Below, in pieces: positions 32,201-62,289 of a stretch of 64,000 nucleotides of DNA (position 1 is its first letter; every line of letters starts with the position of its first letter). Under the pieces are notes generated by a model. That model worked only from the letters and a program-made list of their open reading frames with translations. It searched no databases and was not told the DNA's origin. Source of the DNA: Candidatus Omnitrophota bacterium (lineage in GTDB: Bacteria; Omnitrophota; Gorgyraeia; S143-82); the NCBI GenBank assembly GCA_015494465.1, contig WGBD01000001.1, forward strand, positions 180,477 to 244,476. Direction: 5' to 3'. A program made the translations under genes and the position numbers.

Positions 32201-35200
32201 CGGTGACTGTGCGACTTTGTGTGCATAATAGTCTGAAGACACCTGAAAGAGTACAGACGGCCGGATGTATTCAGCGGTCAAACCCTGCTTTTTAAGCCCC
32301 TCAAGGGAATTAGACCAACTGTAATTTTTGAAATACTGCCTGAATGCAGTATCCTGCAAACTCCTGTTTACGAATGAAATCGTGGTCTCTTGAGGGCGCA
32401 GAGCCTTCAGAGCGACTGCACTCTTGCCCATAAAGAGGCCCTTTTCCTCATACCTGACCAGCCCTTTCTTCTCGTCAAGGTTGGGGATAAATGCACGCCA
32501 CTCTTTCCCGCTGAGGTCTTGTAAGGCCTTTACGGTGAGCATGCGATCGTCACCGGCCAGATAAACCCCGTTTTTGCCAGCACTCGTGTCGATGTGTACA
32601 CCGTAAACCATTTTTGCTATACTCACCAGCCCGCGACGATCCCTCACCTTATCGCCCCAAGTCCAACCCCGAACGATGTTCACACCTTTGATATCACCAC
32701 TTGGGCCCCGCACAATCGCCGTCGGGAATATAGGCCGGGTCTTTCCGTCGGAGAAGTAGAAGTAATCCTTGGCCATTGCCAGATTGCCTGCAAATCTCCC
32801 GGTGGCATTGGCGACCGTACCCAGTCCGGTGAGAGACCACTCGACCCCCTTTGCACGGACTATATCGCCTTCTTTGTACACCCTTGCCCCGGCCCGGGTA
32901 GCCTCAACGGGACCCTTGGGTTTGGGAGAAGAAGGAACCGCTATCACATTCACCAAGACAGGCAAGTCCCCCTTTATGTTCACGGCACCCGCATTGACCT
33001 GAACCTTTTGCGTCACCAATTCCTGCCTACCATGCGCTACCTTGATGTTCAGGTCCCCCCTTATCCCCGTCCCCCCTCCGGTCAGCGCTACGATGTCTGC
33101 CTTCTTCGAAGAAAGTGAGAGGGTACCTATCCCGATACCCAATTCATTGAGTGCCTTCATTTCCTTATCGGTTAATGTTTCCCCCTTATAGGCCTTTATG
33201 ATAGCGTCCTTCACCTCCCGGGAAATCTTTAGAGCATTCAACTTTTCAGCGAGATCTTCAACTCCCTTGGCAGTCTCAAAAATACCCTTGATCTGATTAT
33301 TTGTCACCTCCCTTGCCAGCAATACCTGCTTCTGAGAGGCGAGGTTGTACATATTGGCAACAGTGGTTCCACCCGTGAGATTTACGCCTCCAAAACCGGT
33401 TACCCTATCGTATGTAGCGCCTCTGTTGATGTTCTGCAAAACCTCAATGTTCTGCACGGGAGTCTTCGCACTTCGGCCGGTATTAAAGGTCCCCACGAGG
33501 AGGTAATTGGCGTTCTCGACATCGCCGGTAAACCTCAACTTGACCGCGTTGCTCTGGTAGGCACTGAGGGTGCCATACATGTTGGTCATAAAGATGGTAA
33601 GCCTCTGATCCGTGGCAAGAAGACCTGCTCCCTCTTTTCTAACCTTTACTTCAATTGTACTGATACCTCCGCTGGACCCCGAACCGGGGGAGGAGCCGGG
33701 TCCTGCCGACAAGAAGGGCACGAACCAGTTCTCTCCCTCTACCTTCCAGGCGTTGTGGGCTCTATCATAACTGAGATTACTCTGTCTCCAATTGCTCACC
33801 CCATCTACCTTAAAGGCTACCTTAAGACCCTTTCCACCCGCTAAAGTAAGATTTCCACCCCGTAGTTTGTACTTTGCCTCTTCAAACTTAAGTCGGCCCT
33901 CCTTAATCCGCCGGACATTGGCAGCCTCCTTTACATTCCCGACATCCGGAGTCTGGACCTTGACCCAACCGCGTTTACCCTCAAACGGGATCTGGATCCA
34001 CACCACCTGTCCCTCATTAACCCCCGAAAACTTTACTTCACCATTAGGATTAAAGGTCGCGGTCATTTTGTTAGTGAAGGCCACCTGATTTACGACATTG
34101 GGAGCGCCGTTCTTCCCGGTGCCATAGGTAATTGGCATTCGATCCGCGGTTTCTCCATGGATGGTGATATTTGTCAACACCCGACGATCAACGAAGTCGC
34201 CGGTTACCTCCGCCGATCCCTTACCGATGCGCACGGAAGAGAAGGTGTTATTTAGTAAGATCTTAGAGGGAGGTTTGAAGTTCAATTCAGCGACGAGCTC
34301 ACTAGCCCTGCCAACAAAATCTGCCTCCGTCTTTGGGATGTCTATCTTTTTCGGTCTTCCTGCATTACCAGAGTCGGGGTTTCCTCCACTAATCCGCATA
34401 GCGTGCACGGGGAGGGTGAGTCGGTTTTTGCCATTTATAAAAGCCCGTCCAGATTTATCTACAGACATCTTGGCCTGCTGGTTTTTATAATTATTGTACG
34501 AGACAGTGACATCGAGAGGTTTCGTAGCGTTTATCCTGCGATTTATTCCCTGATCAGGCGTGACATCCCAGGTAAACGAAACACCATGCCCAAAATCAAC
34601 TTTCACCTTATGGGTTTCCCCTGTTTTTTCATCTCTCAAAACCGTGTCCAAGTGAGTGACATTATTCTGCGTAATCAATGCCCCGTGCTTGAGCACGCCT
34701 TTGTAGGAGGAGATGGCACCGGCCTCGTTAAAGTAGAAGTCCCATGCCCCTCCTTGCTCAGGACGGGCATCCATATCCACCTTATCTGCCAACAAACCGC
34801 CCAAGTAGGTCTCCTTGATAGGCCCCTGCCCTCTTACGACCAGATTCCTTGGTATGATGTCGTAGGTAGAACTCTGCGGGTTGGCAAGGGCGTTCGAGAG
34901 AGAAACCAAGAGATATCTATCTTTTGCCGGTGAATCGGGGTTTGAAGATATGACTTCCTTCACCCACTTTATATCCATAAAGCCATGGCCTTCTGGAATA
35001 GGTTGATCCTGTGGTGGCTGACCCCGAGGTGGCGCCCTATCTGGCAAGAGTCTGGTTCCCCAAACCCTGGAATAAGTCGCACTTACCCTCTTTGCCCACC
35101 AAGCACCTGCGTCTATTAAGGATTGACTAGTCCTCACCACATCCAAACCGTACACTCCTGCGCGCTCGTTGCCTTTGCTATCGTAAACCGGGATCGTAGC

Positions 35201-38200
35201 GACCATTCGCTCGGAAATATTGCCCCGATCCCAAGCAAATCTTATATTCATAGGATCAACACGGCCCTGTGGCAGATTCTTATTCCCCTGCTCTGCAAAG
35301 TCCCTCCCTATGGTCTTGTTCCCAAAAGATATAGTCGAAGAAAGCACACGGGTTGGAGTAAATGTAACGTTCATCTGAGTGATAGGCCCGCCCTGCATCT
35401 CATCGGTTATGTCGGCCTGGACATTCCAACTACCGGCGCCATAGTAGTAACGCCCATCCTTTATTCGCATTACACTGGTCTTTGCTAAGTCCTCCGGGCG
35501 CACATGCTTCACGACTCGGTGAGAGACCCTGTCCTCTCTCAGGTAGTTATCCACAGCCACAAATCCCCGGGTCTCGGGATTGGTGTATTTACCAAACTTC
35601 ACTATCAGATTTTTATTCATTGAGGCATCAAAGAGATCACCGGATCCAGAAATGCTTGTAGAACCACCGAATCCCGGAAGGGATTGGGCAATACCCTCAA
35701 ACTTTACCTTTGCTTTATCCATATAACCGAGGTTATAAGGGTTCACATCATCCCCAAGAGATGTTATAAAGTCGAACTGGAAAGGAGGCATTTCGCCTTT
35801 TGTATTACTACCGGAAGTCTGTGAAGCACCCGCACCCGTCTCTGATACAGTCTGCTGAGGCGCAGCCAATGCCACAAGAAATTTATCATCTTTACTTCTA
35901 AGCACTTTATCTTCTGGACTCAAGACCATAGACCTAGTTTCGCCTGTCTGGATGGAGTAATCCCGCCATAGGAAAGCGTCTAACGGATTATCTTCTAAAG
36001 TAGAAAATGTCTTCTCTGGGCCAAACAATAGATTTAAGGTCCATTCTTCACCTGGATAGTATGCAGTTAATTCCCCTCGAACCTCTTTCGAAGATCCTTC
36101 AAGCTTATCCATATGATAACTCAGTTTGAAACCTTCACCCCTCATAACCGTATTTACATCAAATGTAGCAGATACAGGTTTTTCAAATTGCGCCTCCGCT
36201 TCGTATCCGATGCCATTTTCCACCCTGTACCTATCAAAAGCAATGTGGCTAATTCTGGCTGCCGTGCCTGGGGCGAGTTCTAACTTATTGTCCAATACTG
36301 CCGTCCAGAACTTCTGTTTGCTTATAGGCTCTACCCACCCTGTCTTCTCAGACAGAGCAAATCCCCGCCGGATGCCGTTTATCTCAATCTCACCGGCCTT
36401 TTTACCCCAAAGCATAGTATTCCGGAAGTCAAACGCCATCCCTTCCTCTGCAAAGGGATTCACCCTCATCCCCGCCCTCAATGACGCAAAGACCTCCTTC
36501 GCTCTCACTCCCTCGTCGGCCTTCAACCTCGCCTTCCCAACATTTTCGGGTAACTCCGCAGTAAGGGCGACGACATCTCTGGACAGTTGAGTCGTCCGCA
36601 CGGATGCAAGTGCCTGTGGGGTGGGTTGTCTTTGAGGTGAGGGTGTATTCGTGGATCTGACTGTTTTATCCCAAGAAAAATGAAATATGCTTCCTTCGTC
36701 CATCCAGTATTCATCCGATTCTTTCCGATGGATAACTCCGGTGGTATACACCCATTCCCTCCCTATCTGGTGAACACCCTTCGGGAGACCCGTGCCCTTT
36801 TCAATGAGATCGTTTCTACCCCAACTGAACACCGGCACTTTTCCCTCAGGGCTTAAATAGTAAAACCTCCCACCAACTATCCCGTCGCTTAATAACATAC
36901 CCATCTCACCGGGCAAATTCCCCTTAGCAAACCTCTCCTCTAATCTCCCCAAATACGCCTTACCGGTCTCCTCCTTACGCAGGATGTTATCCAGTTGTCC
37001 AAGGTCCGTCCCCCCCGCTTCCAAGCGGCGGAAGGCCCCTAAGACCCGACCTACATTGAGCTGTCCGGAAGAGGAAAGGTAGGTTGGAACTCGATAGGAA
37101 AAGAACTTCGCATGAGTGGCTATGCCAACGGTGATGTCCTCCTCCATCCGCTCATCATAGGTGTACCTATTCTCAAAAGTGCCTACGGGGGTGTAGGTGG
37201 CCAGATCGTATAATTGACTATTATTGGCATATTCACCAGCGCGATTTACATAACCCAAGAAAGTGGTGCTATTATCCATCCAGCGGGAAAACAATCCCGC
37301 AAACGGCCCCGAACCTTTTCTTATTTTCATACCCAAAACATCTCCGAACTTGATCCCTTTCCCTTCGGATCCATATACACCATTCAATCCCACGAAGACC
37401 GGTCTTTTATCACTGAGATGAAGGGCATAAAGACCGGAGGAGAGAAATATCTTATCCATTATATTCGTAGAGACCGCGTGGGCGCCCTGAGAGACCATCC
37501 TGCCCCAGACCTCACCTGGAGTAGGGAGTAGATGATAACGCCAATCGCTGACGCCGTGCTCCTTCAACTTATCCGCTATCCCGGACATCTGGACTATCCC
37601 GGCGGCATTTGCCAATCTCATTGCATATCCACTCGAGGCTGCCTGATAAGAGGAGAAATCCCCGTAATTGCCAAGCTCCGGCGGACGCCAAGTGGCCAAG
37701 ACTCCCTTCAGTTGACGCATCGAACCCGAAAAGGCCTCTTTCCAGGTTGGCCTGCGGAGGGTCATCTTTCCGTCAGGTCCAACGACCGGATGGGTGGTAG
37801 CCTTGGCCCACAAAGCGCTGGCCCCAACCAGCGCCAAGGTGGTAACCTGTGAACTGGCATAGGGGCTTAGACCTAGTTTATCCTCCGCAAGGTCCTCCAG
37901 CTTGCCAACTGCCAAGTCCGCAATTCCACCTCTGACCCCCGATATCAACACATCCTTCCAAAACTCACTCGAAGCCAAGGACGAACCTGAATAGCCTTCA
38001 CCCGTGGAGGCAATGCCTCTTCCTACCGCAGAGCTTATGGAAGTGCTGACCAATCCCCTCAGGAAGTTGTCTTTTACCCACCCCTTCTTCTCCGCGAGGC
38101 CAGTAACTGCCAATCCCACGCCCTCCGAACCCCATTGAGAGAGGTTAGTTCTAGAAAAAGCATCTTTAATCCCCCGTCCAAAGCCTCCCTTAGTCAAGGG

Positions 38201-41416: not shown

Positions 41417-41659
41417 TTAATTATTGTTTATCCGAAGAACTCCTTTGGTAGGACCTCCACCTCCGGAAATATCATCCGCGCTAACTTCGCCAAAGACCGA
41501 GACCACCGCAGATCGATTGCGACCCAATAATATAGATTTAAACAAATTGGCCATGACTACGATACCCATTATTACCGCAACACTTAGTACCATGTATTCT
41601 ATAAAACTAAAACCTCTACGGTCGTTATCGTGCAACGATCTACTCTGCATCCTTACCAT
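41417..41659 (-). CDS. Flp/pseudopilin-like small protein with class III signal peptide (G/FSFIEY)
   Basis: The ORF track extends it to 41779, overlapping the upstream gene. The internal ATG at 41659 gives MVRMQSRSLHDNDRRG|FSFIEYMVLSVAVIMGIVVMANLF, a G-X4-EY prepilin motif followed by a hydrophobic helix. Confidence 0.5.
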   Translation of the reverse strand: MVRMQSRSLHDNDRRGFSFIEYMVLSVAVIMGIVVMANLFKSILLGRNRSAVVSVFGEVSADDISGGGGPTKGVLRINNN

Positions 41660-41670
41660 AAACGCCGTCC

Positions 41671-43344
41671 TTAATTGCCTTGGATCCACCAATTGTTCGT
41701 AGTTGGACCTCTGTGCTTTTTTGCGTAATATCGAGCCCGGGTAGTAAAGCAATAGCCATTCCTGCAAGCCCTTACCCATACCACTTGCTTACAACGCTTC
41801 ACCTTTATCTTAACCTTGGTAAGTTTCTTCTTGACCTTTATCTTAGGCATCTTGAAACTCACTCTCACCTCAAGAGAGTGACGCCTCCCTAACTTATCCC
41901 TCCAAGAATATCTAAAATCATTACCCCCGACAGCATAACTTCCCTCACCAAATGCTTTCATAAGGAGGTCCCTATACTTATTTTCTATCTGGTTTATCCT
42001 GTCCATAAACCTATCCATAGAGCTGGAAAAGGCCATCAGACTAGCGATCAAACGCTCCTTGAGTTTGGTATACTGCCACTCAGTCATATATACATCTTCT
42101 CCCTTGCTGGTTCTCTCGTATATATCTCTAAGCATCTCTAAATAATTACTCCCATGTACGAACTTCTCTGCGTGGCTTCCTACCATTAAAGGACTTACCG
42201 TTGAATTAGAGACCACCTTTACGCGCCCATACCTGCGGATTTCCTTCCAACCACTCCCCGGTCCAAACGAACGAACTCGCTGAATACTATATGTACCTTT
42301 TAGATCACTATTTCTTATCGTGTCGACAGCGATATTAACGAAGCGCTTCATCCGCTCAAAATCCCGCGAGAACTGACCATCCTCGTCCTGCTCCTCAGGA
42401 TCCCAGTCTTTAATAACCTGCAGAGCCTGGACTGGGTCTACCTCTTTTTTAGCTAGGGCCCACATCAACCCCGCTAGGCTCATCTCTGGATTGGTTCCTG
42501 CCCCGCCATATAGTACCGCACGAAGGTAATCAAAGCTCGAGAGACTAAGAACGGGGTTGACTTCATCTTCGTCCGGCTCTATTGCTTCCGTATAATAAGC
42601 AGGCTGATCCATGTTAGTCCCTGCCAGCTTATCCCACAAGCTTAAGGCCTCAAGGAGATCTTCTATCCACCCTCCTTTACCAGGTGAACCAGCATACCCA
42701 GGCAAGCCGGAGTAATAATAGTAAGCCTTTATGATCTCTTTTCTCATTGATCCCAGAACGCCGTCTAATCCGCCATTATTATTACTCCCTGCGGATCCAT
42801 TTATAGCTGCCTCCAGGGCTTCGCTCAGTTGGGGAATAACTTCTGGATCAGCCAAGAGCTGTGCCACATAAGAGATAGTACTCCAACGAAGAACATCCCT
42901 CACGTTGGATAATCGTTTAAAGGCAGCCCTGAGCCTTTTGACAGCCGCATTCGTAACGACCTCATCCGCTACGAATGTAGCCAAACCTGTTGTTGAAATG
43001 GCTAAGGCCCAATTAAGACCTACTATGCCGAACCCCCCTAAGAAGCCACCTAATATAGACAGCCCTAGGCCTACAATAGCACCCCACCTCCTCTTTTTCT
43101 TCTTACACTTACACTTCAGATACTTACAAGCCAAGTAATGGGCATAACTGCCCACTATTGATCCCAAATACATCGCCCCTGCATCGGCGGCTATTTTGGC
43201 CTTGGTCTGGAAGTATTTTTTCTGGGCATAGAATATCCCTACAGAACCGAGAAAGAACATAACCGCCATAACTAACAGCAGTACAGCCGCTATCTGCCCA
43301 GTCTTCTTCTTCAAGCCATAGGGCATTATGTCACTTATCCTCAT
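41671..43344 (-). CDS. TadG-like pilus-associated protein with N-terminal pseudopilin-type anchor and Cys/Lys-rich segments
   Basis: 557 aa. The N-terminus KKKTGQIAAVLLLVMAVMFFLGSV resembles the TadE/TadG N-terminal domain. It also has unusual CKYLKCKCKKKKRRW and C-terminal KRCKQVVWVRACRNGYCF cysteine clusters. Confidence 0.45.
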   Translation of the reverse strand: MRISDIMPYGLKKKTGQIAAVLLLVMAVMFFLGSVGIFYAQKKYFQTKAKIAADAGAMYLGSIVGSYAHYLACKYLKCKCKKKKRRWGAIVGLGLSILGGFLGGFGIVGLNWALAISTTGLATFVADEVVTNAAVKRLRAAFKRLSNVRDVLRWSTISYVAQLLADPEVIPQLSEALEAAINGSAGSNNNGGLDGVLGSMRKEIIKAYYYYSGLPGYAGSPGKGGWIEDLLEALSLWDKLAGTNMDQPAYYTEAIEPDEDEVNPVLSLSSFDYLRAVLYGGAGTNPEMSLAGLMWALAKKEVDPVQALQVIKDWDPEEQDEDGQFSRDFERMKRFVNIAVDTIRNSDLKGTYSIQRVRSFGPGSGWKEIRRYGRVKVVSNSTVSPLMVGSHAEKFVHGSNYLEMLRDIYERTSKGEDVYMTEWQYTKLKERLIASLMAFSSSMDRFMDRINQIENKYRDLLMKAFGEGSYAVGGNDFRYSWRDKLGRRHSLEVRVSFKMPKIKVKKKLTKVKIKVKRCKQVVWVRACRNGYCFTTRARYYAKKHRGPTTNNWWIQGN

Positions 43345-43583
43345 CTCCGATCCTTCCTAAACTCATAAAAGGAAGAGCCCTTATAAGGCAAAGAAATCCT
43401 CGGCAAGCTACTCCCAGGAATCCGGCGATAAAAGATTAACCTGTACGCCCGAAAGCGCTTGTTCATATCAAACGACACCCAACTTATAAAAGAAACCATA
43501 GCGCTTACGAAAAGCGCCAATACTGCAACCGCTATTATGGTATCCAATAACACCTGTCCTTCGTTACCACGAGAAACTCTCAT
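43341..43583 (-). CDS. TadE-like minor pilin / pseudopilin (short)
   Basis: The internal start gives MRVSRGNEGQVLLDTIIAVAVLALFVSAMVSF, a class III-like signal plus hydrophobic helix. The longer track ORF (to 43631) overlaps the upstream gene by 68 nt. Confidence 0.45.
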   Translation of the reverse strand: MRVSRGNEGQVLLDTIIAVAVLALFVSAMVSFISWVSFDMNKRFRAYRLIFYRRIPGSSLPRISLPYKGSSFYEFRKDRR

Positions 43584-44532
43584 CTCCACTACTCCACTCG
43601 TAGCTTTTTGTGCCAGTCCTACTCTCCACATCCCTGTGAATCGTGTAGGGCCCTGTAATCCTCAGCCTCCCGTGGTCACCGTTCACTACAATCTCTGCAG
43701 AGCGTTTATCTCTTTCCACATAATTGTTCCTAAACAGACCCGATAAAGAGTCAAGATCACCCCGCCAGCTCTCGTGCTCAAGATAGTTTATGAGAGAAGA
43801 AATCTCCCCTGGCACATAAGAACCATAGGCAGAATAGAGGACATCCTTCAACTTTTGGAGTTGGTGCTGCCTTTCCCCTGGCGAAAGATTTGCAAAGCTC
43901 CTTTGCACTCCATCCCACTGCTCTAGCCAGTGCCTCACCCTCTGATATACATAACTATCTGCCCCAAAGTCATCCTCTATTCTTTCCAATATCTTCCCTT
44001 CGCGATTCGCTATCTCCTCGTCCGGGGACACGCTTAAAACCAAAAACTGCCCTTCTCTTCCCCGGAGATCGCTCGGCAGCAGTCCTGCTATATTGGGAGG
44101 AGGTAAACCTACTAATTGCCGAGATACATTTTTGCCATCCATGATTATCTTTACTAATGTGGCAGGTTGATCGGGATCGTCGTCGTGCTCCTTCCAGAAC
44201 ATATTCCATGACCAGATAGCACTTGCGGTATCTCTAATTTCACGATAAGCGGGGAAGAAAATATTCAACAGAGATGGGACCCTTCTGTGCTCTATAGCGA
44301 TTTGCATTACTGGTGCCCCTGTGGTCCCCGCGCTAGCGGCAAACTTAACGGTCTCCACAAAATTCCTAATCATCAAATCCTGACGATATACCAAAACAAG
44401 GACATACGAGACGAAAACCGAAGCGATCATCAGTATTATAGTGCCCCAGATAGACAGCTCTACTAAGGCCTGCCCCCCACACGGCTTTGTTCCTCGTACG
44501 GCTGGATCATATCGATGCCTCATATGTCTCAC
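43564..44532 (-). CDS. TadE/TadF-like pseudopilin with large C-terminal domain
   Basis: 322 aa. ...KPCGG|QALVELSIWGTIILMIASVFV matches the TadE N-terminal consensus (G-x-A-x-VE + TM helix). Confidence 0.5.
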   Translation of the reverse strand: MRHMRHRYDPAVRGTKPCGGQALVELSIWGTIILMIASVFVSYVLVLVYRQDLMIRNFVETVKFAASAGTTGAPVMQIAIEHRRVPSLLNIFFPAYREIRDTASAIWSWNMFWKEHDDDPDQPATLVKIIMDGKNVSRQLVGLPPPNIAGLLPSDLRGREGQFLVLSVSPDEEIANREGKILERIEDDFGADSYVYQRVRHWLEQWDGVQRSFANLSPGERQHQLQKLKDVLYSAYGSYVPGEISSLINYLEHESWRGDLDSLSGLFRNNYVERDKRSAEIVVNGDHGRLRITGPYTIHRDVESRTGTKSYEWSSGDESFSW

Positions 44533-44875
44533 TCACCGTCTCCTTCACTTCTTCATTAGCACTTACATGTTCGAGAAGGTCAGAGCTAGCAGCTCCTTCG
44601 TTAACGGGAACAAAATTATGGTATGTAACGACATTCCTGGAGATAGTGCGCTTATATTGAACAGTTCCATCCTTTCCGAAGGGCTTATGTCCCAAACTGG
44701 AGATGAGGCTGTATATCCTGCCTGCAGAAGAGCGTTTCAGGTAAGGCATCATCAACATCACTGCTGCGGTTATCACCATTATAAGCACGGTAATCTCTAC
44801 CGCCGTCTGTCCTCCGCTGTCTCTTTCACATAGACTCTCTAATCGTATTGGATGTCGAAGAGGTAGTCTCAACAT
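44507..44875 (-). CDS. flp: Flp-family pilin paralog (long leader; start uncertain)
   Basis: ...RDSGG|QTAVEITVLIMVITAAVMLM: G/XXXXE motif followed by a hydrophobic helix. The 5' end overlaps the upstream pilin by 50 nt, so the true start may be internal or non-ATG. Confidence 0.5.
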   Translation of the reverse strand: MLRLPLRHPIRLESLCERDSGGQTAVEITVLIMVITAAVMLMMPYLKRSSAGRIYSLISSLGHKPFGKDGTVQYKRTISRNVVTYHNFVPVNEGAASSDLLEHVSANEEVKETVSETYEASI

Positions 44876-45146
44876 ATCTTGCGTGCCCTTCAGATATCTG
44901 GAACTTGCTTACGGTGGTTTGTTTCACTCCGGAAACGGTATTCTCGTTTATCGTGACCCCAATCTCTGCTTCGTCTATCGACTCAACTCGTTGAGTTTTC
45001 AATCCAACTGCCACGAACAGGTCCCTTATCTTTGCTTGTACACCGCGACGATAATAGGTCTGCATAGCAAATATCGCTCCCACAATCGCCAATACCAGGA
45101 CCGCGTACTCAGCTATGCTCTGTCCCGACTTTTCCCCTGCCCGCAT
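44826..45146 (-). CDS. flp: Flp-family pilin paralog (106 aa)
   Basis: MRAGEKSG|QSIAEYAVLVLAIVGAIFAM: a canonical class III signal with E+5, Y+6. Confidence 0.65.
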   Translation of the reverse strand: MRAGEKSGQSIAEYAVLVLAIVGAIFAMQTYYRRGVQAKIRDLFVAVGLKTQRVESIDEAEIGVTINENTVSGVKQTTVSKFQISEGHARYVETTSSTSNTIRESM

Positions 45147-45151
45147 TTATC

Positions 45152-45328
45152 CTATTCTCCTACCCTAATATCGGCGGTTTTGGAGATATCCCTAATCACA
45201 GCTGAAAACTTACCCCGAGCAGAATATAAAACCAAAATAAGGGCTGCGCAGACCGCCCCAACAAAGAGGGCATACTCAACTACTGCTTGCCCAGGAGATC
45301 GCCTACGCCATCTCTTACCAATTCGCAC
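45152..45328 (-). CDS. flp: Flp-family pilin paralog (about 58 aa, probable GTG start)
   Basis: The track ORF 45152..45427 overlaps the upstream gene by 113 nt. An in-frame GTG at 45328 gives (M)RIGKRWRRRSPG|QAVVEYALFVGAVCAALILV, matching the family leader pattern. Confidence 0.45.
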   Translation of the reverse strand: MRIGKRWRRRSPGQAVVEYALFVGAVCAALILVLYSARGKFSAVIRDISKTADIRVGE

Positions 45329-45662
45329 CTTCGGTAATAGATTGTAAGTTGTCAACTTTGACCCCATTGTACCACTCCGTCTGATTGCTCTCGAAAGTAG
45401 TATAGTCTGTACGCTTCTCACCCCCACTGTAGGTCGTCTGGGTGGTTACAGACTCAGTATCAAATTCCTTGTGATATACAACCTGACTCTGACTTGCATC
45501 AGAGTAATCCCACAACTTACCTCCGCCTATCTTCTCGGCAGATTCCCGAGACTTTCCTTGAATAGCCCGCTTAAGATACCCCTGCATGAGGAAGATTGCC
45601 ACTGCGACTATCATGAATAGCACCACGACCTCTATAGTGGATTGCCCTTTTCTCATGGCCAT
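45315..45662 (-). CDS. flp: Flp-family pilin paralog (115 aa)
   Basis: MAMRKG|QSTIEVVVLFMIVAVAIFLM. Confidence 0.6.
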   Translation of the reverse strand: MAMRKGQSTIEVVVLFMIVAVAIFLMQGYLKRAIQGKSRESAEKIGGGKLWDYSDASQSQVVYHKEFDTESVTTQTTYSGGEKRTDYTTFESNQTEWYNGVKVDNLQSITEGANW

Positions 45663-45691
45663 ACCTCCCTTTTCAGGTTATCCTGATCAGA

Positions 45692-46057
45692 TCAATAATT
45701 CCCGAGGGCATCGTCCCCTTCTTGGACTTCATAACTACCCGATTCGTATTCCACATGTGAAAACTGGTTGCTAAGGGCATTTATGTTCTTATCCAAAACT
45801 ACTTGGGAGTTCTGCACTACCTGTTGGTTTATGTTCTTCGTTTCGTAATAAGGCACATACTGAAACTTATCGCCTGCCCCCATACCCAAGGCATTTCGCA
45901 TCATATGTACCATACTATCTTTTTGCCTGGCCTGCAGTGCCCTCTTCACATATAACTGCATAGCCACCGCTGCACCGATGATTATGGCAAACAAGGTAGC
46001 GTATTCCGCTACGCTCTGCCCTCTTTTACTGGACAAGTTCATGAAAGCCATGGCCAA
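45692..46057 (-). CDS. flp: Flp-family pilin paralog (121 aa)
   Basis: ...SSKRG|QSVAEYATLFAIIIGAAVAM. Confidence 0.65.
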   Translation of the reverse strand: MAMAFMNLSSKRGQSVAEYATLFAIIIGAAVAMQLYVKRALQARQKDSMVHMMRNALGMGAGDKFQYVPYYETKNINQQVVQNSQVVLDKNINALSNQFSHVEYESGSYEVQEGDDALGNY

Positions 46058-46073
46058 CCTCCTCTTTAAGAAT

Positions 46074-46240
46074 TAGTTATTACTGCTAGGCGGACTAGTA
46101 TCCACCATTTTACTGAATAAAGCCATCCTGCCATTCACCGCCCGCATAGCGAACTGATACATCACCGTAAAGGCGGCGGCTACTATGAGGAATAAGACCA
46201 CATATTCTGCCATGCTTTGACCTATCTTCCCCACTCTCAT
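46074..46240 (-). CDS. flp: Flp-family pilin paralog (55 aa, not in ORF track)
   Basis: Hand translation: MRVGKIG|QSMAEYVVLFLIVAAAFTVMYQFAMRAVNGRMALFSKMVDTSPPSSNN. Its ATG overlaps the TGA of the upstream gene (ATGA). Confidence 0.6.
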
Positions 46241-46380
46241 GGGCACTTGCTCCCTTTGGTCAAGTCCGCGTGCACGCAGGAATCCATCTTAACAAAGAAC
46301 GAGGTTATTGCCCCAACCGCTGCTGCCACGAAGAGACTCATTATTATTGCGTATTCTAACAAGCTTTGCCCCTTAGACAT
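46237..46380 (-). CDS. flp: Flp-family pilin paralog (47 aa, not in ORF track)
   Basis: Hand translation: MSKG|QSLLEYAIIMSLFVAAAVGAITSFFVKMDSCVHADLTKGSKCP. It starts 2 nt after the stop of the upstream pilin. Confidence 0.6.
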   Translation of the reverse strand: MSKGQSLLEYAIIMSLFVAAAVGAITSFFVKMDSCVHADLTKGSKCP

Positions 46381-46382
46381 AT

Positions 46383-46721
46383 TCATTGAAACAACTTCTC
46401 TTTGTTCAATACATCGAACTCTTTATCCTCGACTCGATTTTCTACATAATAATCGTACGTCTTTGTCTCCACACCTCCCTTGCTCATAGTGATGCTATAT
46501 TCTGCCTTCACATTCTGCACCACATTGAATTTTGTCACATGGTCCGGGCTAAATTGCTCACCCACACTATCTCCGCTTTCTTTTAATCGAGCCATTATAG
46601 CCCTTCTAACAAAGCGGTTCATGGTAAGCACAGCAGCAGCAACAATCATAATAAGCACCACTATCTCTATGGCAGATTGTCCCTTCCTTCTCAATGCTTT
46701 TTTTGAAGCCCTTCCAACCAT
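46383..46721 (-). CDS. flp: Flp-family pilin paralog (112 aa)
   Basis: MVGRASKKALRRKG|QSAIEIVVLIMIVAAAVLTM. Confidence 0.6.
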   Translation of the reverse strand: MVGRASKKALRRKGQSAIEIVVLIMIVAAAVLTMNRFVRRAIMARLKESGDSVGEQFSPDHVTKFNVVQNVKAEYSITMSKGGVETKTYDYYVENRVEDKEFDVLNKEKLFQ

Positions 46722-46747
46722 AGCTTCCTCCCCCTATCCTATTAAAC

Positions 46748-47122
46748 TTACAAAGTTTCGTTCCATCCCCAATCGCTTATATCGGTATTCCCTGCAACCC
46801 CAAGGGTGTTTTCATAACCACTGGTGATTTCCGTAACACTCTGGGTATGTGAAGCGGTCTTTCCTTCCCCGACGATGTTAACCCAACCACTCTGATTGCT
46901 CTTAGTAGTAAGTTGGGACTCTGTATAATACGGCTCGAACTGGACCGTTCCATCCAAGGTCCCATTTCCTGTGTTCACAAGGTGATTTAATACCACAAAG
47001 CGAATAGCCCCTTGCTGGCCCCTCTTTATGAAGATATTCATAGTAGTCACCGCAGCTACCACTAGGAGTATCAAGACTGCGTATTCCGCAGTGCTTTGTC
47101 CCTTTTTATCACTCAACTTCAT
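46748..47122 (-). CDS. flp: Flp-family pilin paralog (124 aa)
   Basis: MKLSDKKG|QSTAEYAVLILLVVAAVTTM. Confidence 0.65.
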   Translation of the reverse strand: MKLSDKKGQSTAEYAVLILLVVAAVTTMNIFIKRGQQGAIRFVVLNHLVNTGNGTLDGTVQFEPYYTESQLTTKSNQSGWVNIVGEGKTASHTQSVTEITSGYENTLGVAGNTDISDWGWNETL

Positions 47123-47161
47123 GGCCTCCCCTCCTTAAACTCTCCACACTCTCAAACTCCC

Positions 47162-47332
47162 TTAATTCACCTGTATCTTCCCTATAGCCTTCGTCATGTT
47201 TTCGGTTAATCCGTTGTAACTGCTTTTGACTTTTGTCTCCAACTGGGCCTTCACTATTAATATAGCTGCGATGATGCCCGCCAAGATCAAGAGGTACTCC
47301 ACTATACTCTGTCCCCTTCTGCTCCTTTTCAT
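47162..47332 (-). CDS. flp: Flp-family pilin (56 aa, first gene of array, not in ORF track)
   Basis: Hand translation: MKRSRRG|QSIVEYLLILAGIIAAILIVKAQLETKVKSSYNGLTENMTKAIGKIQVN. Canonical Flp size and motif. Confidence 0.65.
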   Translation of the reverse strand: MKRSRRGQSIVEYLLILAGIIAAILIVKAQLETKVKSSYNGLTENMTKAIGKIQVN

Positions 47333-47546
47333 GTCCCTCCTCCTCTCGTTTTGGGTCCCATCTTACTATTGCCCAATGGGTTTTGGCCCTAATTTGAATC
47401 GATTAATTAATATTTTCAAATTTCCAAATTTTAACCGCGCAGAGAAAGAGCAAGCCTAAGCCTCTCAACTGCTTATTTCAAGTATAGACGCCATCCCTTG
47501 AGAAGTCAAATTCGCCAGCGCCCCTAAACCTAAACACAACTTTAGT
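47333..47546 (-). promoter_or_regulatory. AT-rich intergenic region upstream of the pilin array (candidate promoter/operator)
   Basis: 214 nt between the hldD stop and the first flp gene. The minus strand reads ...GGTTAAAATTTGGAAATTTGAAAATATTAATTAATCGATTCAAATT..., with AAATTTG direct repeats and an ATTAATTAAT palindrome. Confidence 0.3.
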
Positions 47547-50014: not shown

Positions 50015-51085
50015 TCACCTGCTCATTATCTGGGTGAGGCTAAAAAGCGGGAGGAACATCGCAATTACGATAAAGCCCACCACCACTCCCATAAAGACTA
50101 TGAGAAACGGCTCCAGAAGTGAGGTAAGAGAAGACACCATCAATTCCATCTCCTCCTCGAAGATTTCCGCTACCTGGGAGAGCATCGGAGCCAACTTCCC
50201 GGTTTCCTCCCCAAGACTGATCATCTCCACCACCAACGGCGGGAAAAATCTCACCTGCGTACGAAGATAAGAACTTATCTCATCCCCTTCTTCCACGATA
50301 AATATCAACCGCTGTAGCAATGCCCTATAGACCTCGTTTTCTATGGTCCCCCTGGTTACGCTGATCGCCTCTACGATGGGAACACCGCTGGCCAGAAGCG
50401 TACTAAGGGTCTGGGCAATCCTTCCCACATAGAACCTCTTAAACAACCCTCCTATACCCGGTAATAACAAGATAAATTCATCCATCTTGTAGCGCACCCT
50501 AGGGAACCTTCGCAAGAAGGAAATCAGCCCGAAGACCCCTACGATAAACAGAGCACCGATCCACCAACTCTCGCGTACGAATTGAGAGGCCCCTAATAAC
50601 AGTCGCGTTGGCAAAGGGAGGGCCTCTCCGTATTCGCGAAACATCTTCATGAAAGAAGGCACGACGAATCCCATTATTATCAAAAGGATGACCAAGGCAA
50701 CCAATAGGACGAATACAGGATAGGCCAAGGCAGATATTATCTTCTTTTTGGTGCGATGCTGGTTCTCCAGAAAAGAGGCCAATCGCAAAAATATCTCGTC
50801 CAGAGATCCACTGGCCTCAGCCACCTTTACCATGTTTACATAGTAGACCGGAAAGATGGAAGGATACCTAGCAAGGGCATCCGAGAGCTTGTCACCCTGT
50901 TCGACCTGTACCGCTAGAGAGGCCACGATCCCGGCAAAGGCGCGATTCGTCAGCTGAGAGGAAAGGGTGTGAAGGGCCCGTACCAGTGGGATGCCTGCCC
51001 TCAACATCACCGCCAGCTGGCGGGTAAAATAAATAAGTTGCCCAGCGGGTATCCTGCTGGGCAACTTTAGGAATCGCAGATCCAT
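50015..51085 (-). CDS. pilC: type IV pilus / T2SS platform protein PilC/GspF family
   Basis: 356 aa with two T2SSF-like repeats (AGIPLVRALHTL...; SGVPIVEAISVT...) and three TM segments. Confidence 0.7.
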   Translation of the reverse strand: MDLRFLKLPSRIPAGQLIYFTRQLAVMLRAGIPLVRALHTLSSQLTNRAFAGIVASLAVQVEQGDKLSDALARYPSIFPVYYVNMVKVAEASGSLDEIFLRLASFLENQHRTKKKIISALAYPVFVLLVALVILLIIMGFVVPSFMKMFREYGEALPLPTRLLLGASQFVRESWWIGALFIVGVFGLISFLRRFPRVRYKMDEFILLLPGIGGLFKRFYVGRIAQTLSTLLASGVPIVEAISVTRGTIENEVYRALLQRLIFIVEEGDEISSYLRTQVRFFPPLVVEMISLGEETGKLAPMLSQVAEIFEEEMELMVSSLTSLLEPFLIVFMGVVVGFIVIAMFLPLFSLTQIMSR

Positions 51086-51099
51086 GTCTAAGGGGCGAA

Positions 51100-52365
51100 C
51101 TATCGCACCCTATCTCCAGGCTTTATCTCCTCACTACCGTACAGCTTGATGATGTCTGCTGCACACACGTTGTCCTTTAGCATTCGTACTCTTACCCGCG
51201 CTATCTGTTTATCCCCCCGCAAGACATCGAACTCCATACCCTCTACTACCCCGTCCTTCTTGCCCAGATCTATCACCACGAAGTTGTGCGCCTCGTTAAC
51301 GCTCAGGATCTTGCCCTCCAGCTTCAACCCCGTATTCACCACCTTCTCCTCAGCCACGGCCGATCCCGACTTGGCTGAACCCACTACTATCGGAGGCAGG
51401 TCTACGACCTGGCTCTTAGCCAACGACTTGGAGGAAGTAGCCTGCATGTCCTTCATCTTCTCCGCCAAGGTCAAGATCTGATCTATGCTCTCGCGCACCG
51501 CGGTATCCATGTCCTCAAGATACCGCTTTAGCAGTTCCTTTTCCTCCTCTGTCTTCGATAGCCTTTTCTCTAGGTAAGTCTCCGACTTGGTGAGCTTTAT
51601 CACCTTATCCTTTATCAGACGGTTCTCTTGCTCCATCTTGTCCAATATCTCCTTCATGGCTCTACGATTCTCTTTCTCTTTTACGAAGTCGCGGGAGAGG
51701 ATGGCCAACATCCTACGGGCATAGTTCAACTGACGCTCAAGCTCCTTGTTTTTCAACTCGGTCTGGGCAAGCTTTATCTCTAGCTCTAACTTCTTTTGTA
51801 AGGCCTCTTTCCTCTCGACCTCTTTCTTGCGAAGCTGATTCTCCAATTCCTCGACCTTGGCCTCGAGCTCTGCCTTTTTCTGAACCACATCTGCCCAGAA
51901 TGGGTCAGCCTCTAGACCCGAAGGGCTAACCTCAGAAGACACCTTACGCTTAGGCCTGCTCTTCAGATCCTCCAGCTCCTCTTTCAGATCCGCCAGCTCC
52001 TCGACCTTCTTCTCGTACTTCTCTCGCAAGTCCTCTAGATCCTCTTGGAGAGCGGTCTTCTCTTTAGCCAGGGAATTGTACTTCTCCTCCAGGTCCTTTT
52101 TCTCCAACTTGAGGGACATTATCTGCCTCTTGTAGCTCTGGATGTCCTTCTTTACCTTCTGGAGTTCCTCACTGATCTTTTTCTTCTCTTGTTCCACTGC
52201 CTGTTTCTGACGGGCGAGTTCGGATATCTTGGCCTCGTATTGGCGACGCTGGGAAAGGAGTCGGGCATGCTCGTTCCGATAATCCATGTAGAACTTGATG
52301 CTGATGCCACCTAGCGCTAGGACTAGCAAAAGGAAAAGAACTATTACTAACTTGACTCTTTCCAT
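51100..52365 (-). CDS. membrane-anchored long coiled-coil protein with small C-terminal beta-rich domain
   Basis: N-terminal TM, about 300 aa of heptad-rich K/E/L sequence, and a C-terminal of about 70 aa (FVVIDLGKKDGVVEGMEFDVLR...IKPGDRV) that is OB/SH3-like. Confidence 0.45.
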   Translation of the reverse strand: MERVKLVIVLFLLLVLALGGISIKFYMDYRNEHARLLSQRRQYEAKISELARQKQAVEQEKKKISEELQKVKKDIQSYKRQIMSLKLEKKDLEEKYNSLAKEKTALQEDLEDLREKYEKKVEELADLKEELEDLKSRPKRKVSSEVSPSGLEADPFWADVVQKKAELEAKVEELENQLRKKEVERKEALQKKLELEIKLAQTELKNKELERQLNYARRMLAILSRDFVKEKENRRAMKEILDKMEQENRLIKDKVIKLTKSETYLEKRLSKTEEEKELLKRYLEDMDTAVRESIDQILTLAEKMKDMQATSSKSLAKSQVVDLPPIVVGSAKSGSAVAEEKVVNTGLKLEGKILSVNEAHNFVVIDLGKKDGVVEGMEFDVLRGDKQIARVRVRMLKDNVCAADIIKLYGSEEIKPGDRVR

Positions 52366-56404: not shown

Positions 56405-57691
56405 TCAATCGACCAGACTACCCAGCTCCTTTTCTTTCTCTGCCATAGTGGGCGAGGTCCACAGCGTCTTCAACACATAAAAGCTCTTCCTCGGCTTGCG
56501 TATGTTCCAACCGTGCCGGGGATCCTTCTTCCTAGAGATTGCGATTAATCCCCACCACTCTTCGTTCATGTTCAGGTTGTGATCACAGGCGATGTCGTGA
56601 TAATATCCACCGCAGGACCAATCTCCCTTCTTGTCGTGTCGCCACCAGCTCTTTGGGTCGAACACATTGCTCTTCCACCACTCGTCCGTCCACTCAAAGA
56701 CTATCCCCCCCACGACATTTCCTCTGCCCGTACCCACCGCAAGGTTCCTCTCTATCTCTTTCCACAAGGCGGCTATGTACTCCGCTTGGATGTCCTCGTT
56801 CTCTTGCATGTGCAGGGCATCGAACGCGTCTGCTCCAAACTCCATCACGAAAAATGGCTTCCGGGGACAATACCTGGCCACATCTCTCCACACATGCCCA
56901 AAGCTCTTGCCAGTAAACAGGTTTAGTCCCAAGATGTCTATGTGCTTGCAGATCCTACCCGCCACCTCCAATCCTCGCGTACCACCGTTACCCATGGCCA
57001 CCAACCTGTCGGGATCTATCCGCTTTATCTCCTTGGCCAGGGAGTCTACGAAGGAGTAATATATCTCCGCCTGCCGTTCCCTCCGACGAGCAGGGTCCCT
57101 GATCTCCAAAAGTTCCTTAGTAATCCAGGGATTCACATTCTCGGGGCCAAAAGAATAATTATTCTCGTTGCCCAACACCCACATGATGATGCCAGGCTCG
57201 TTTTTCAAGGCCTTGACCATCCGCAGGACATCCCGGCGGACCTTCCGGCGGAACTTTGGGTCCCCGTAATTGGGGTTGTCCCAAAACCCCAGCCAGTGCC
57301 CCATTATGGTGTAGATCCCGTACTCTTTATAGAGCTTGTGGATAAACCTCTTGGTGGCCTTTATGTCCTTGCTAGGCTGGTAGAATCGGACCACATTTGC
57401 TCCCAATTCCTTCAATAGAGGGCCATCAACATCCAATATGGAGGGATGGGCAAAGATGTCGAACTGCCAGTTCTTCCCAATCGGTATAGGCTGATAGACC
57501 ACCCCCCGGATGATAAACGGTTTACCGTACACATACAAAACGCACCCTTTGGAGGTATGTTTTATCTCGGAGATAGCCGAATTACCGACTAGCCCAAGGG
57601 GAAATAGGAATAAAAATAACACGAGGGCCCTAACCAGGGCCCTCGCTCCGTTCAAACGCGAACTATCGGATAACCTATTATTCACCCTCAT
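56405..57691 (-). CDS. clan GH-A glycoside hydrolase (GH2/GH5-like TIM-barrel catalytic domain)
   Basis: Signal peptide. Acid/base-type motif IIMWVLGNENNY (cf. GH2 WSxxNE) and nucleophile-type VMEFGAD. Confidence 0.5.
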   Translation of the reverse strand: MRVNNRLSDSSRLNGARALVRALVLFLFLFPLGLVGNSAISEIKHTSKGCVLYVYGKPFIIRGVVYQPIPIGKNWQFDIFAHPSILDVDGPLLKELGANVVRFYQPSKDIKATKRFIHKLYKEYGIYTIMGHWLGFWDNPNYGDPKFRRKVRRDVLRMVKALKNEPGIIMWVLGNENNYSFGPENVNPWITKELLEIRDPARRRERQAEIYYSFVDSLAKEIKRIDPDRLVAMGNGGTRGLEVAGRICKHIDILGLNLFTGKSFGHVWRDVARYCPRKPFFVMEFGADAFDALHMQENEDIQAEYIAALWKEIERNLAVGTGRGNVVGGIVFEWTDEWWKSNVFDPKSWWRHDKKGDWSCGGYYHDIACDHNLNMNEEWWGLIAISRKKDPRHGWNIRKPRKSFYVLKTLWTSPTMAEKEKELGSLVD

Positions 57692-58841
57692 AGATTATGT
57701 CGTCTAGATAAAAGGTGCAACCGTTGGGATTCACATCCATGTTGGTCACCCAGCAGAAACCACCTATGATGTAGGACATGTCCTTTCCGGAGAGGTCTAT
57801 AGTGTACTTCTTCCATTCCTTGGTCAAGACTATGGGACCTATTTCAGCGCTGTCGGAATCGGAATACTTGTCCTGGATACCTCCAACCTTGAACGCCTCT
57901 ATCCTCTCTCCGCCTTTTTCTCCTCTGGCCCAGAAGGTGAGTTTCTTGGCCTTGCTCAGGTCGTAACCTGCGTCTATCTTTCCCCAGTTGTTGGCCGGCT
58001 CGAGCCAATACACCCCAGCCCAACGGGCACCCCTGGAACCCTGAGCAGTGTAGGTGAACTTTATACAGGTGTCCCCACTGTGAGGATCCTCCTCACAGGC
58101 ATCGTCCATCTTTATGTCGCTATAATCCCCCATGAACCCAGAAGGTACGAAGTGATTCTTTAAGGATCTCTTGTCGATGTAGACCGCAAACGGCATAGGC
58201 TCCGGACCTTTGACCTCCGCCTTGAGAGTGGGATCGTATTCGTAACGGATGTCGTCAAGGTAGAAGGTCGCACCGTCGGGATTTTGACCTGCCTGCAGTA
58301 CGAAGGCAAATCCACCGCTGATGTAGGACAGATCCTTGCCAGCCAGGTTTATCTCGTACCTCTGCCACTCGTCGCTAAGCTGGATAGGACCGATGGATAC
58401 CTCGGTGGAATCCGGGTAGAGCCCCTTGATCCCCCCTACCATAAACTTGGCTACTATCTCGTCCCCGTATTCACCTTTTGCCCAGAAGGTCAACTTGTTC
58501 ATCGAAGAGAGATCGTAACCTCCTAGCTTGGTCCCCCAGTTGTTGGGTGGGTTCTGCCAATATACGCCAGCCCATCCCTGCCCTTGGGACTTGTCAGCGG
58601 TGTAGACTACCTGGATGCAGGTCTTCCCAGAATGGACATCCTCGGTGTAGGCATCGTTGATCCGGATGTCTCCGTAATCGCCCATGTAACCAGACGGCAC
58701 ATAATGGTTGCTAGGATCACCCTTATCCGTATAGACATTAAAGACCTTGCCTTCAGGAATCTTTATCCCCTGGGGCTTCTCAGCGTAAACCACACCACCC
58801 AACCCAAGGCACAGCACCGCAAACGCCAGCAATCTCCGCAT
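57678..58841 (-). CDS. secreted protein with tandemly duplicated carbohydrate-binding-like domain
   Basis: Signal peptide, then two ~170-aa internal repeats sharing NH(Y/F)VPSG(Y/F)MGDY.DI...D...ED.HSG.TCI...YTA...G..WAGVYW..P.NNWG...GYDLS...KLTFWA.GE.G. Confidence 0.5.
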   Translation of the reverse strand: MRRLLAFAVLCLGLGGVVYAEKPQGIKIPEGKVFNVYTDKGDPSNHYVPSGYMGDYGDIRINDAYTEDVHSGKTCIQVVYTADKSQGQGWAGVYWQNPPNNWGTKLGGYDLSSMNKLTFWAKGEYGDEIVAKFMVGGIKGLYPDSTEVSIGPIQLSDEWQRYEINLAGKDLSYISGGFAFVLQAGQNPDGATFYLDDIRYEYDPTLKAEVKGPEPMPFAVYIDKRSLKNHFVPSGFMGDYSDIKMDDACEEDPHSGDTCIKFTYTAQGSRGARWAGVYWLEPANNWGKIDAGYDLSKAKKLTFWARGEKGGERIEAFKVGGIQDKYSDSDSAEIGPIVLTKEWKKYTIDLSGKDMSYIIGGFCWVTNMDVNPNGCTFYLDDIIYEGE

Positions 58842-58944
58842 ATCAGCACCTCCTCTTTCTTCCCGTCACTCTACCGACTTCCTAATTTAACATTCTATCC
58901 CAATCTCCTCTGAAAGTCAAAAATGGATTTAAACTTTTTTAAAA

Positions 58945-61420: not shown

Positions 61421-61422
61421 GT

Positions 61423-62277: not shown

Positions 62278-62289
62278 AGTTGTGCCCTT

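Follow-up and report, generated by a model that had tools for sequence, protein, structure and literature searches.

Two overlapping genes for probable Flp/Tad-kind mini-pilins in the pilin array preceding a giant gene of an Omnitrophota bacterium

Can two frames of about fifty codons, placed between longer pilin-like genes, be genuine pilin genes, and does the stop/start overlap between them couple their translation? The frames in question, ORF1 and ORF2, lie on the minus strand of a stretch of 64,000 nucleotides (nt) of contig WGBD01000001.1 (positions 180,477 to 244,476; assembly GCA_015494465.1, Candidatus Omnitrophota bacterium). This whole stretch is called the window below, and coordinates are given within it. 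An original prediction described the frames as two unannotated Flp-like mini-pilin genes that share an ATGA stop/start overlap and are tightly coupled in translation. We find that ORF1 and ORF2 are, with high probability, real and conserved genes for very small filament subunits of the Flp/Tad kind (type IVc, related to the archaeal Epd pilins). They are genes 4 and 5 of one minus-strand operon, where they are followed by TadB/TadC-like genes and an open reading frame (ORF) of 10,455 amino acids (aa).

Frames, starts and conservation of ORF1 and ORF2

The two frames, their junctions and the element upstream of ORF2 are as follows.

46237..46386, minus strand: ORF1, 49-aa prepilin with leader MNMSKG and a mature part of 43 aa (QSLLEY...) that carries a C-terminal C-x10-C
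46073..46240, minus strand: ORF2, 55-aa prepilin with leader MRVGKIG and a mature part of 48 aa (QSMAEY...)
46383..46386, minus strand: ATGA stop/start overlap of ORF1 with the upstream 112-aa pilin gene p3, whose TGA is at 46383-46385
46237..46240, minus strand: ATGA stop/start overlap of ORF1 (TGA at 46237-46239) and ORF2 (ATG at 46238-46240)
46250..46256, minus strand: Shine-Dalgarno-like AAGGGAG of ORF2, 9 nt before the ATG, within the coding sequence of ORF1 (T-K-G-S)

The translations, obtained from the reverse complement of 45800-47200 and from a six-frame ORF list with a minimum of 25 aa, are MNMSKGQSLLEYAIIMSLFVAAAVGAITSFFVKMDSCVHADLTKGSKCP (ORF1, 49 aa) and MRVGKIGQSMAEYVVLFLIVAAAFTVMYQFAMRAVNGRMALFSKMVDTSPPSSNN (ORF2, 55 aa, from the ATG at 46240 to a stop ending at 46073). 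Both mini-pilin frames thus exist on the minus strand as predicted, and lowering the minimum length is sufficient to list them. They are missing from the first ORF track because both are below the default cut-off of the ORF lister, 60 aa.

For comparison we used L002 (GCA_054005615.1) with L003-L006 of the same group (including GCA_027028205.1) and a more divergent lineage, L007-L010. The gene order in all of them is that of the window. The accession and run numbers of the related assemblies turned up no paper in a literature search. The start of ORF1 is most likely at 46386 and not at 46380, as the ATG at 46386 is kept in all relatives compared, and the internal ATG at 46380 corresponds to TTG in the L002 group and to AAC, which is no start codon, in L007. 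The 47-aa version starting at 46380, 2 nt past the TGA of the upstream pilin gene, was therefore rejected; the frame had been identified correctly, and the distance is right for that ATG, but the conserved start lies upstream of it. With the start at 46386, ORF1 acquires the second ATGA overlap, with p3. The six-residue leaders of ORF1 are conserved (MNMSKG, MKLLRG, MRNLKG). The ATG of ORF2 at 46240 is conserved in the relatives, and a 57-aa version from GTG at 46246, offered by the ORF tool, was rejected, the codon being CTG in L007. The start and length originally given for ORF2 stand, and its end was corrected by one base, from 46074 to 46073.

Further arrays were fetched with TadC-like homologs as anchors.

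L017, TadC identity 66%: ORF1 equivalent of 47 aa with the C-terminal KMDNCVHAELTQGSSCL kept; ORF2 equivalent of 58 aa; junction TTATGA, 4-nt overlap
L013, TadC identity 63-64%: ORF1 equivalent of 54 aa; clear ORF2 ortholog of 63 aa (QSLMEYVLLFAIVAAAFAAMYPFAMRAVNGR); junction with a 27-nt spacer
L018, TadC identity 55%: ORF1 equivalent of 51 aa with a GTGA overlap with p3; ORF2 equivalent of about 54-66 aa; overlap of 17 or 35 nt
L014, a named Omnitrophica metagenome-assembled genome, TadC identity 49%: no ORF1 or ORF2 ortholog assigned; the array starts with genes of 65, 47 and 55 aa, the first two sharing a 4-nt overlap

In six lineages, namely the window, the L002 group, the L007 group, L013, L017 and L018, the orthologs of p3 and of the next large pilin gene, p6, flank two short pilin genes. 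Orthologs of ORF1 have 90% and 78% identity (73% over the full length in the latter comparison), with one more ortholog in L017; those of ORF2 have 96% and 73%. An ORF2 profile, run with HMMER against all of 1.84 billion representative proteins, yielded six 50%-identity clusters at E<=1e-10, all of 42-63 aa, and a wider family of 51-75-aa proteins with a [GA]/QSxxEY leader (here and below the slash within a leader marks the cleavage site). Nothing beyond close relatives of ORF1 and ORF2 was found by word-indexed protein searches, and a search of metagenome contigs with the ORF2 alignment found nothing. The degenerate pattern AAFxxMYxFAxxxVNG had one match in metagenome contigs, in L015, which occurs by chance within a fumarase-like gene and was discarded.

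The pattern of substitutions in both frames is that of coding sequence. By the Nei-Gojobori method, the ratio of nonsynonymous to synonymous divergence (pN/pS) of ORF1 is 0.13 between the window and L002, with 12 of 17 differences at third positions, and 0.26 between the window and L007 (28 of 49). For ORF2 the respective values are 0.04 (21 of 24) and 0.22 (24 of 39). The other two frames have no third-position bias; their pN/pS is approximately 0.9-2.0 against L007, and pN exceeds pS against L002. Moreover, the exact 49-aa and 55-aa proteins are already present in public gene calls (NCBI, ENA and Logan assemblies; 781,960-bp contig), and the calls on the identical Logan contig list ORF1 and ORF2 as consecutive genes with a 4-nt overlap. 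Hence the word "unannotated" applies to the first-stage ORF track and not to the public calls. By these sequence comparisons, ORF1 and ORF2 are real protein-coding genes under purifying selection. One could object that both are short and that neither reaches the threshold of a curated family, as would be the case for chance ORFs in non-coding or RNA-coding sequence. However, the third-position bias and low pN/pS are confined to these frames, the leader motif is specific to the array (see below), independent gene callers list both genes, and no Rfam family has a match in 43000-48000; this explanation is effectively refuted, and the probability left to it is negligible.

Another possibility is that the frames are pseudogenes, decaying N-terminal stumps of longer pilin genes, since neighbouring paralogs of 106-124 aa share the N-terminal module. 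Against this, lengths are kept across all six lineages, at 47-54 aa for the ORF1 equivalents and 52-66 aa for the ORF2 equivalents. Purifying selection reaches the C-terminal tails as well, with KMD(S/N)C..A(D/E)LT.GS.C in ORF1 of four lineages and a tail ending in MVDTSP in ORF2. Decay of longer genes is thus very improbable. The C-terminus of ORF1 (46237..46281, minus strand) can be written KMD(S/N)C-x2-A(D/E)LT-x-GS-x-C, with two cysteines ten residues apart. This two-cysteine motif is kept in the window, L002, L007 and L017 and absent in L013 and L018. The cysteines may form a C-terminal disulfide loop, in a region where the AlphaFold2 (AF2) model has low confidence.

Stop/start overlaps and translational coupling

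The overlap of the ORF1 TGA with the ORF2 ATG is seen in the window as described in the original prediction, and it is kept, on the same strand and with 4 nt, in four of the six lineages (the window, L002-L006, L007-L010 and L017). The p3/ORF1 junction in the relatives is a 1-nt overlap, TAATG or TGATG, with the exceptions of GTGA in L018 and a 7-nt gap in L017. Such an arrangement makes translational coupling of ORF1 with ORF2, and of p3 with ORF1, plausible. A ribosome ending on p3 or ORF1 would sit on the next start codon within ATGA and, together with the Shine-Dalgarno box of ORF2, could link the output of the subunits.

Several observations speak against coupling. Firstly, ORF2 has a Shine-Dalgarno box of its own, AAGGGAG at a 9-nt spacing, and this box is well placed and conserved: AAGGGGAG in L002, AAAGGAAG in L007 and CAAGGGAG in L017. 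Secondly, in L013 the overlap is replaced by the 27-nt spacer, which has a Shine-Dalgarno box of its own. Finally, RNA folding at both junctions is no better than in shuffled sequences (z about 0), and no structure occluding the start sites was found. ORF2 therefore has neither a sequestered start nor a missing ribosome-binding site. In addition, the 4-nt ATGA is the commonest overlap class of co-directional prokaryotic genes. Hence the overlaps could reflect mere genome compaction, ORF1 and ORF2 being initiated separately from their own ribosome-binding sites with no functional coupling. On the other hand, four lineages have kept the 4-nt overlap even though their synonymous sites approach saturation (pS 0.66-0.81), and ORF1, whose start overlaps the p3 stop, has only a weak Shine-Dalgarno-like element, AAAGAGAAG. 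Compaction is a serious contender, to which we give somewhat less than an even chance. Thus the conserved overlap stands, and tight coupling is a reasonable reading of it rather than a finding.

Leader motif, pilin array and giant gene

Both proteins begin with a basic leader ending in glycine, which is followed by QSxxEY and a hydrophobic tract: SKG/QSLLEY-AIIMSLFVAAAVGAIT in ORF1 and KIG/QSMAEY-VVLFLIVAAAFTVMY in ORF2. The motif G/XXXXEY, on which the name Flp-like was based, is therefore present in both on re-inspection, in the form G/QSxxEY and with a hydrophobic stretch of about 20 residues. The lengths (49 and 55 aa, or 43 and 48 aa after removal of the leaders; 42-66 aa in orthologs) also agree with Flp pilins.

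A regular expression for the leader followed by a hydrophobic tract was run over all six frames of the window. It has 12 true matches, all on the minus strand between 41614 and 47314. Since all true matches cluster in the array, the pattern is far from chance. The only two matches beyond the array, at 53905 on the plus strand and at 8845 within the giant ORF, were rejected as neither is followed by a pilin-like tract: one has seven polar or charged residues among the next 16, and the other has the acidic QAQEE in place of QSxxE. All of 17 small pilins taken from four loci have the glutamate and the tyrosine of the motif. In the alignment of the small pilins the glutamine at +1 is invariant and the serine at +2 nearly so. 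Many orthologs and paralogs have alanine instead of glycine at -1 (KA/QS, RA/QS, IA/QS; L007:1770-1928, L014:4707-4850, L018:3501-3822 and others). To judge from these positions, the leader grammar of the small pilins is closer to that of archaeal class III signals than to that of classical bacterial prepilins. A 281-aa protein from the ORF2 profile scan, P0138, has the module MRLSKKG/QSVIEYVVVF...RSINGH fused to a cysteine-rich domain of about 230 residues; therefore the same N-terminal module carries large head domains elsewhere too.

The 12 recognisable class III leader motifs belong to an operon-like minus-strand array that extends from approximately 47332 to 41417 and is followed by the Tad-like genes and the giant ORF.

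47481..47509, minus strand: sigma-70-like sequence TTGACT-17-TATACT ahead of p1, a possible promoter of the operon by consensus match only
47162..47332, minus strand: p1, first gene of the array and third pilin below 60 aa (56 aa, RRG/QSIVEY), with a strong Shine-Dalgarno box GGAGGAGGG
46748..47122, minus strand: p2, 124-aa pilin-like, KKG/QSTAEY
46383..46721, minus strand: p3, 112-aa pilin-like, RKG/QSAIEI, directly upstream of ORF1
45692..46051, minus strand: p6, 119-aa pilin-like, KRG/QSVAEY, downstream of ORF2 past a 21-nt spacer, with Shine-Dalgarno box AGAGGAGG
43564..45662, minus strand: p7-p11, with class III leaders, 115, about 71, 106, about 122 and about 322 aa; there are overlaps among several of them, and not all starts are certain
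41417..43631, minus strand: p12-p14, 96, 557 and about 80-120 aa, with pseudopilin-like N-termini (p14 RRG/FSFIEY) and no Pfam match; TadE/F/G-like by position only
40543-41397, minus strand: TadB-like, single-domain T2SSF (PF00482, 1e-19)
39636-40538, minus strand: TadC-like, single-domain T2SSF (PF00482, 2e-14)
8234..39601, minus strand: giant ORF of 10,455 aa, directly downstream of the TadB/TadC-like genes

The nearest named homologs of the TadC-like protein are assigned to the T2SS F family of Candidatus Omnitrophica or, by JGI, called "tight adherence protein C"; the names of homologs at about 50% identity and the architecture of the locus both point to Omnitrophota as the most likely host. 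Shuffled sequences contain promoter-like sites just as often, and a terminator scan gave no convincing terminator within the array. Upstream of the array there are genes for an RfaD-like epimerase and a SurA_N/Rotamase_2 peptidyl-prolyl isomerase (PPIase; 48629-50005) and a PilC-like gene. The region 50015..52365 (minus strand) encodes a two-domain PilC/GspF-like platform protein of 356 aa and a 421-aa coiled-coil protein. In two relatives p13, the 557-aa gene in the TadG position (window 41671..43344), is called as 89+323 aa or as 276 aa after an uncalled gap of about 700 nt (L004:4313-5876, L007:4701-6248), and may thus be disrupted or highly variable there.

Profile comparisons place the small pilins near several families and within none. 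Neither ORF1 nor ORF2 matches PF04964 (Flp_Fap) at E<=1; p1 comes closest in the array, with 16.8 bits against a gathering threshold of 32.2. PF07963 (N_methyl, G/FTLxE) does not match ORF1 or ORF2 either, their residue at +1 being glutamine and not phenylalanine or methionine. ORF1 scores 15.2 bits with TIGR04205, where the cut-off is 65. Among the 17 related small pilins, weak matches were obtained to Class_IIIsignal (seven at E<=0.1, the best 0.0029), Flp1_like (four), Flp_Fap (three at E<=0.1) and PF07963 (one, E=0.004). A profile of the 17 small array pilins has its best PDB matches in 8u2b, "Flp family type IVb pilin" (E=6e-4, 22.8 bits), and in 8u1k, PilA (E=0.03). In this comparison profile positions 11-51 match residues 4-44 of a 45-residue chain; the similarity is weak and owed mostly to the hydrophobic helix. 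The AF2 models are single long helices, spanning residues 3-46 in ORF2 and 9-44 in ORF1, with pLDDT (predicted local distance difference test) of 75 and 71, respectively. Taken together, "Flp-like" is a fair description of the look and, probably, of the function of the two proteins, given the motif and the helix, whereas the scores stay below the Pfam and NCBIfam cut-offs and do not make them formal members of PF04964.

These data are consistent with the following scheme. Transcription would start upstream of p1 and yield one polycistronic mRNA of the array. The prepilins would insert in the inner membrane, and a prepilin peptidase of the A24 type, presumably encoded outside the window, would cut past the glycine of (K or R)-G/Q-S-x-x-E-Y. 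The mature subunits of 43 and 48 residues, nearly all helical, could then polymerise on the TadB/C platform.

There are points that weigh against this assignment. The score of ORF1 with Class_IIIsignal (PF04021), 15.1 bits (E=0.023), is below the cut-off of 23.7, and ORF2 has no Pfam or NCBIfam match at all. The machinery is incomplete here: scans of the window ORFs outside 56405-63956 detected no A24 prepilin peptidase, no TadA/CpaF-type ATPase and no secretin. A search of genome contigs with the TadC alignment found no relative, and the degenerate pattern QSMAEYVVLF had a single match there, in L011 from unrelated Eubacteriales, which was rejected.

One could also suppose that ORF1 and ORF2 are substrates of the prepilin peptidase without being filament blocks. 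They would then be small membrane-anchored or secreted accessory proteins, e.g. pseudopilins with a priming or minor role in a secretion machine for the giant protein. Indeed, at least 12 different genes bear the leader, and any of them could encode the major subunit. The first gene, p1, hidden from the 60-aa ORF track, has the strongest Shine-Dalgarno box of the array and its best Flp1_like and Flp_Fap scores, although these are still below the cut-offs, and it is a candidate for the major pilin. The locus is also called "secretion system"-like in the available passages of the literature. However, the length and helix-only architecture of ORF1 and ORF2 match mature Tad pilins over 41 of 45 residues. 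Besides, both are as conserved as TadB/C while the larger pilins vary, which would be expected of core structural subunits. An accessory role is thus unlikely, and filament subunits remain the preferred assignment.

The conservation of the small pilins relative to their neighbours was seen in comparisons of the window with L002 and L007. Between the window and L002, pN is 0.02-0.06 for p1, ORF1, ORF2, TadB and TadC, and 0.20-0.28 for p2, p3, p6, p7, p8 and p10. Between the window and L007, pN is 0.09-0.11 for p2, p3, p6 and p7, and 0.15-0.21 for p1, ORF1, ORF2 and TadB, so that the ranking flips. Accordingly, p1, ORF1, ORF2 and TadB/C have their nearest counterparts in the L002 lineage (90-96% aa identity), whereas p2, p3, p6 and p7 are 62-67% identical to L002 and 80-84% to the otherwise more distant L007. 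In a sliding window, nucleotide identity shifts sharply near 47000, 46400, 45900 and 45250. Neighbouring genes are about two-fold apart in synonymous divergence from L002, e.g. pS 0.87 for p3 and 0.37 for ORF1; pS near saturation (0.6-0.9) for most genes limits synonymous divergence as a test of recombination. Because adjacent genes differ about two-fold in pS and the ranking flips, the comparison suggests recombinational exchange of variable parts of the larger pilins, and not selection alone. In these alignments the mini-pilins are a conserved island between variable larger pilins.

Given the incongruent divergence between the window, L002 and L007, one may speculate further. The mini-pilin pair and p1 would be the invariant core of a heteropolymeric Tad-like filament, and the larger pilins exchangeable surface modules swapped by recombination. 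Such cassette-like variation would be coupled to the giant protein and serve attachment to different prey or hosts. We regard this picture as rather improbable, if slightly less so than the accessory role.

The giant ORF has no Pfam family at E<=1e-5 (10,000 of its 10,455 residues were scanned). Its synteny is the same in L002, L007, L012, L013, L016 and L018; of the giant ORFs in the same position, that of L012 has 16,032 aa, and those of L013 and L016, which are cut off, reach at least 5,886 and at least 4,275 aa, respectively. The available passages of West-Roberts et al. (bioRxiv 10.1101/2023.11.21.568195) describe a secretion/pilus arrangement of this kind upstream of Omnitrophota giant genes. 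The window has the elements given there, namely a giant ORF, GspF/Tad-type genes, a Rotamase_2 PPIase and many small class-III-signal genes; gspD, gspE and rcpC, listed in those passages, are absent in the window. Tad and pilus cassettes adjoining giant ORFs also appear in the passages available from Seymour et al. (PMC10066038) and from a 2026 preprint (10.64898/2026.06.07.730766). In the passages retrieved, the small genes are not treated one by one, nor are their order, overlaps or conservation. Thus, the locus type and its small class III-signal genes are already known for Omnitrophota.

A region at the end of the window, 56405..63956 (minus strand), contains a cluster of secreted glycoside-hydrolase-like genes, judged by eye, followed by sugar ABC-transporter permease and binding-protein genes. 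This cluster agrees with published reports of genes for carbohydrate degradation and import close to giant genes of Omnitrophota.

The analysis provides a gene-by-gene map of the pilin array preceding an Omnitrophota-type giant gene. It also shows that Flp-type pilins, which at 45-60 aa are the principal components of Tad-like pili, escape an ORF track with a 60-aa minimum; three of them (p1, ORF1 and ORF2) occur in one operon here. The larger pilins vary, and the smallest are conserved to the same degree as the assembly platform. This is a starting point for finding the subunit of the filament thought to mediate attachment to prey or hosts in uncultured ultra-small bacteria.

Comparison with known systems

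The system is of no new kind: it consists of uncharacterised Flp/Tad-type mini-pilins in an architecture already described for Omnitrophota. Besides that architecture, it resembles three known arrangements. Firstly, the very short prepilins with a G/XXXXEY leader, the mature parts of about 45 residues that are nearly all helical, and the tandem pilin genes with TadB/TadC-type platform genes are features of Flp/Tad (type IVc) pilins, such as Caulobacter crescentus PilA (8u1k), 8u2b/8ucr and PF04964. However, the array has at least 12 leader-bearing genes as compared to one to three flp genes in Tad systems. The invariant glutamine at +1, the near-invariant serine at +2 and the alanine at -1 of several array-pilin orthologs also differ from Flp pilins. 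Unlike in Tad loci, no tadV, tadA, tadZ or rcpA is adjacent to the array among the scanned ORFs of the window. The conserved C-terminal Cys-x10-Cys sets ORF1 apart; it is unusual for Flp pilins.

Secondly, the (K or R)-G/Q leader, with glutamine at +1, glutamate at +5 and glycine or alanine at -1, is shared with archaeal class III signal proteins and Epd-type pilins (PF04021; TIGR04205), and these are the only Pfam or NCBIfam families touched by ORF1, below threshold. Unlike in archaea, the host is bacterial, as indicated by the Omnitrophica-named homologs, and the platform is split into TadB and TadC, an arrangement known from the Tad systems of bacteria. Archaeal Epd-like pili are generally assumed to be the ancestors of Tad systems.

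Finally, the co-directional genes with conserved 4-nt overlaps, encoding putative subunits of one complex, are analogous to coupled ATGA/TGATG gene pairs in bacterial operons. The E. coli trp operon is a textbook case of such pairs. The mini-pilin pair differs from them in that ORF2 has its own Shine-Dalgarno box and is preceded by no occluding RNA structure.

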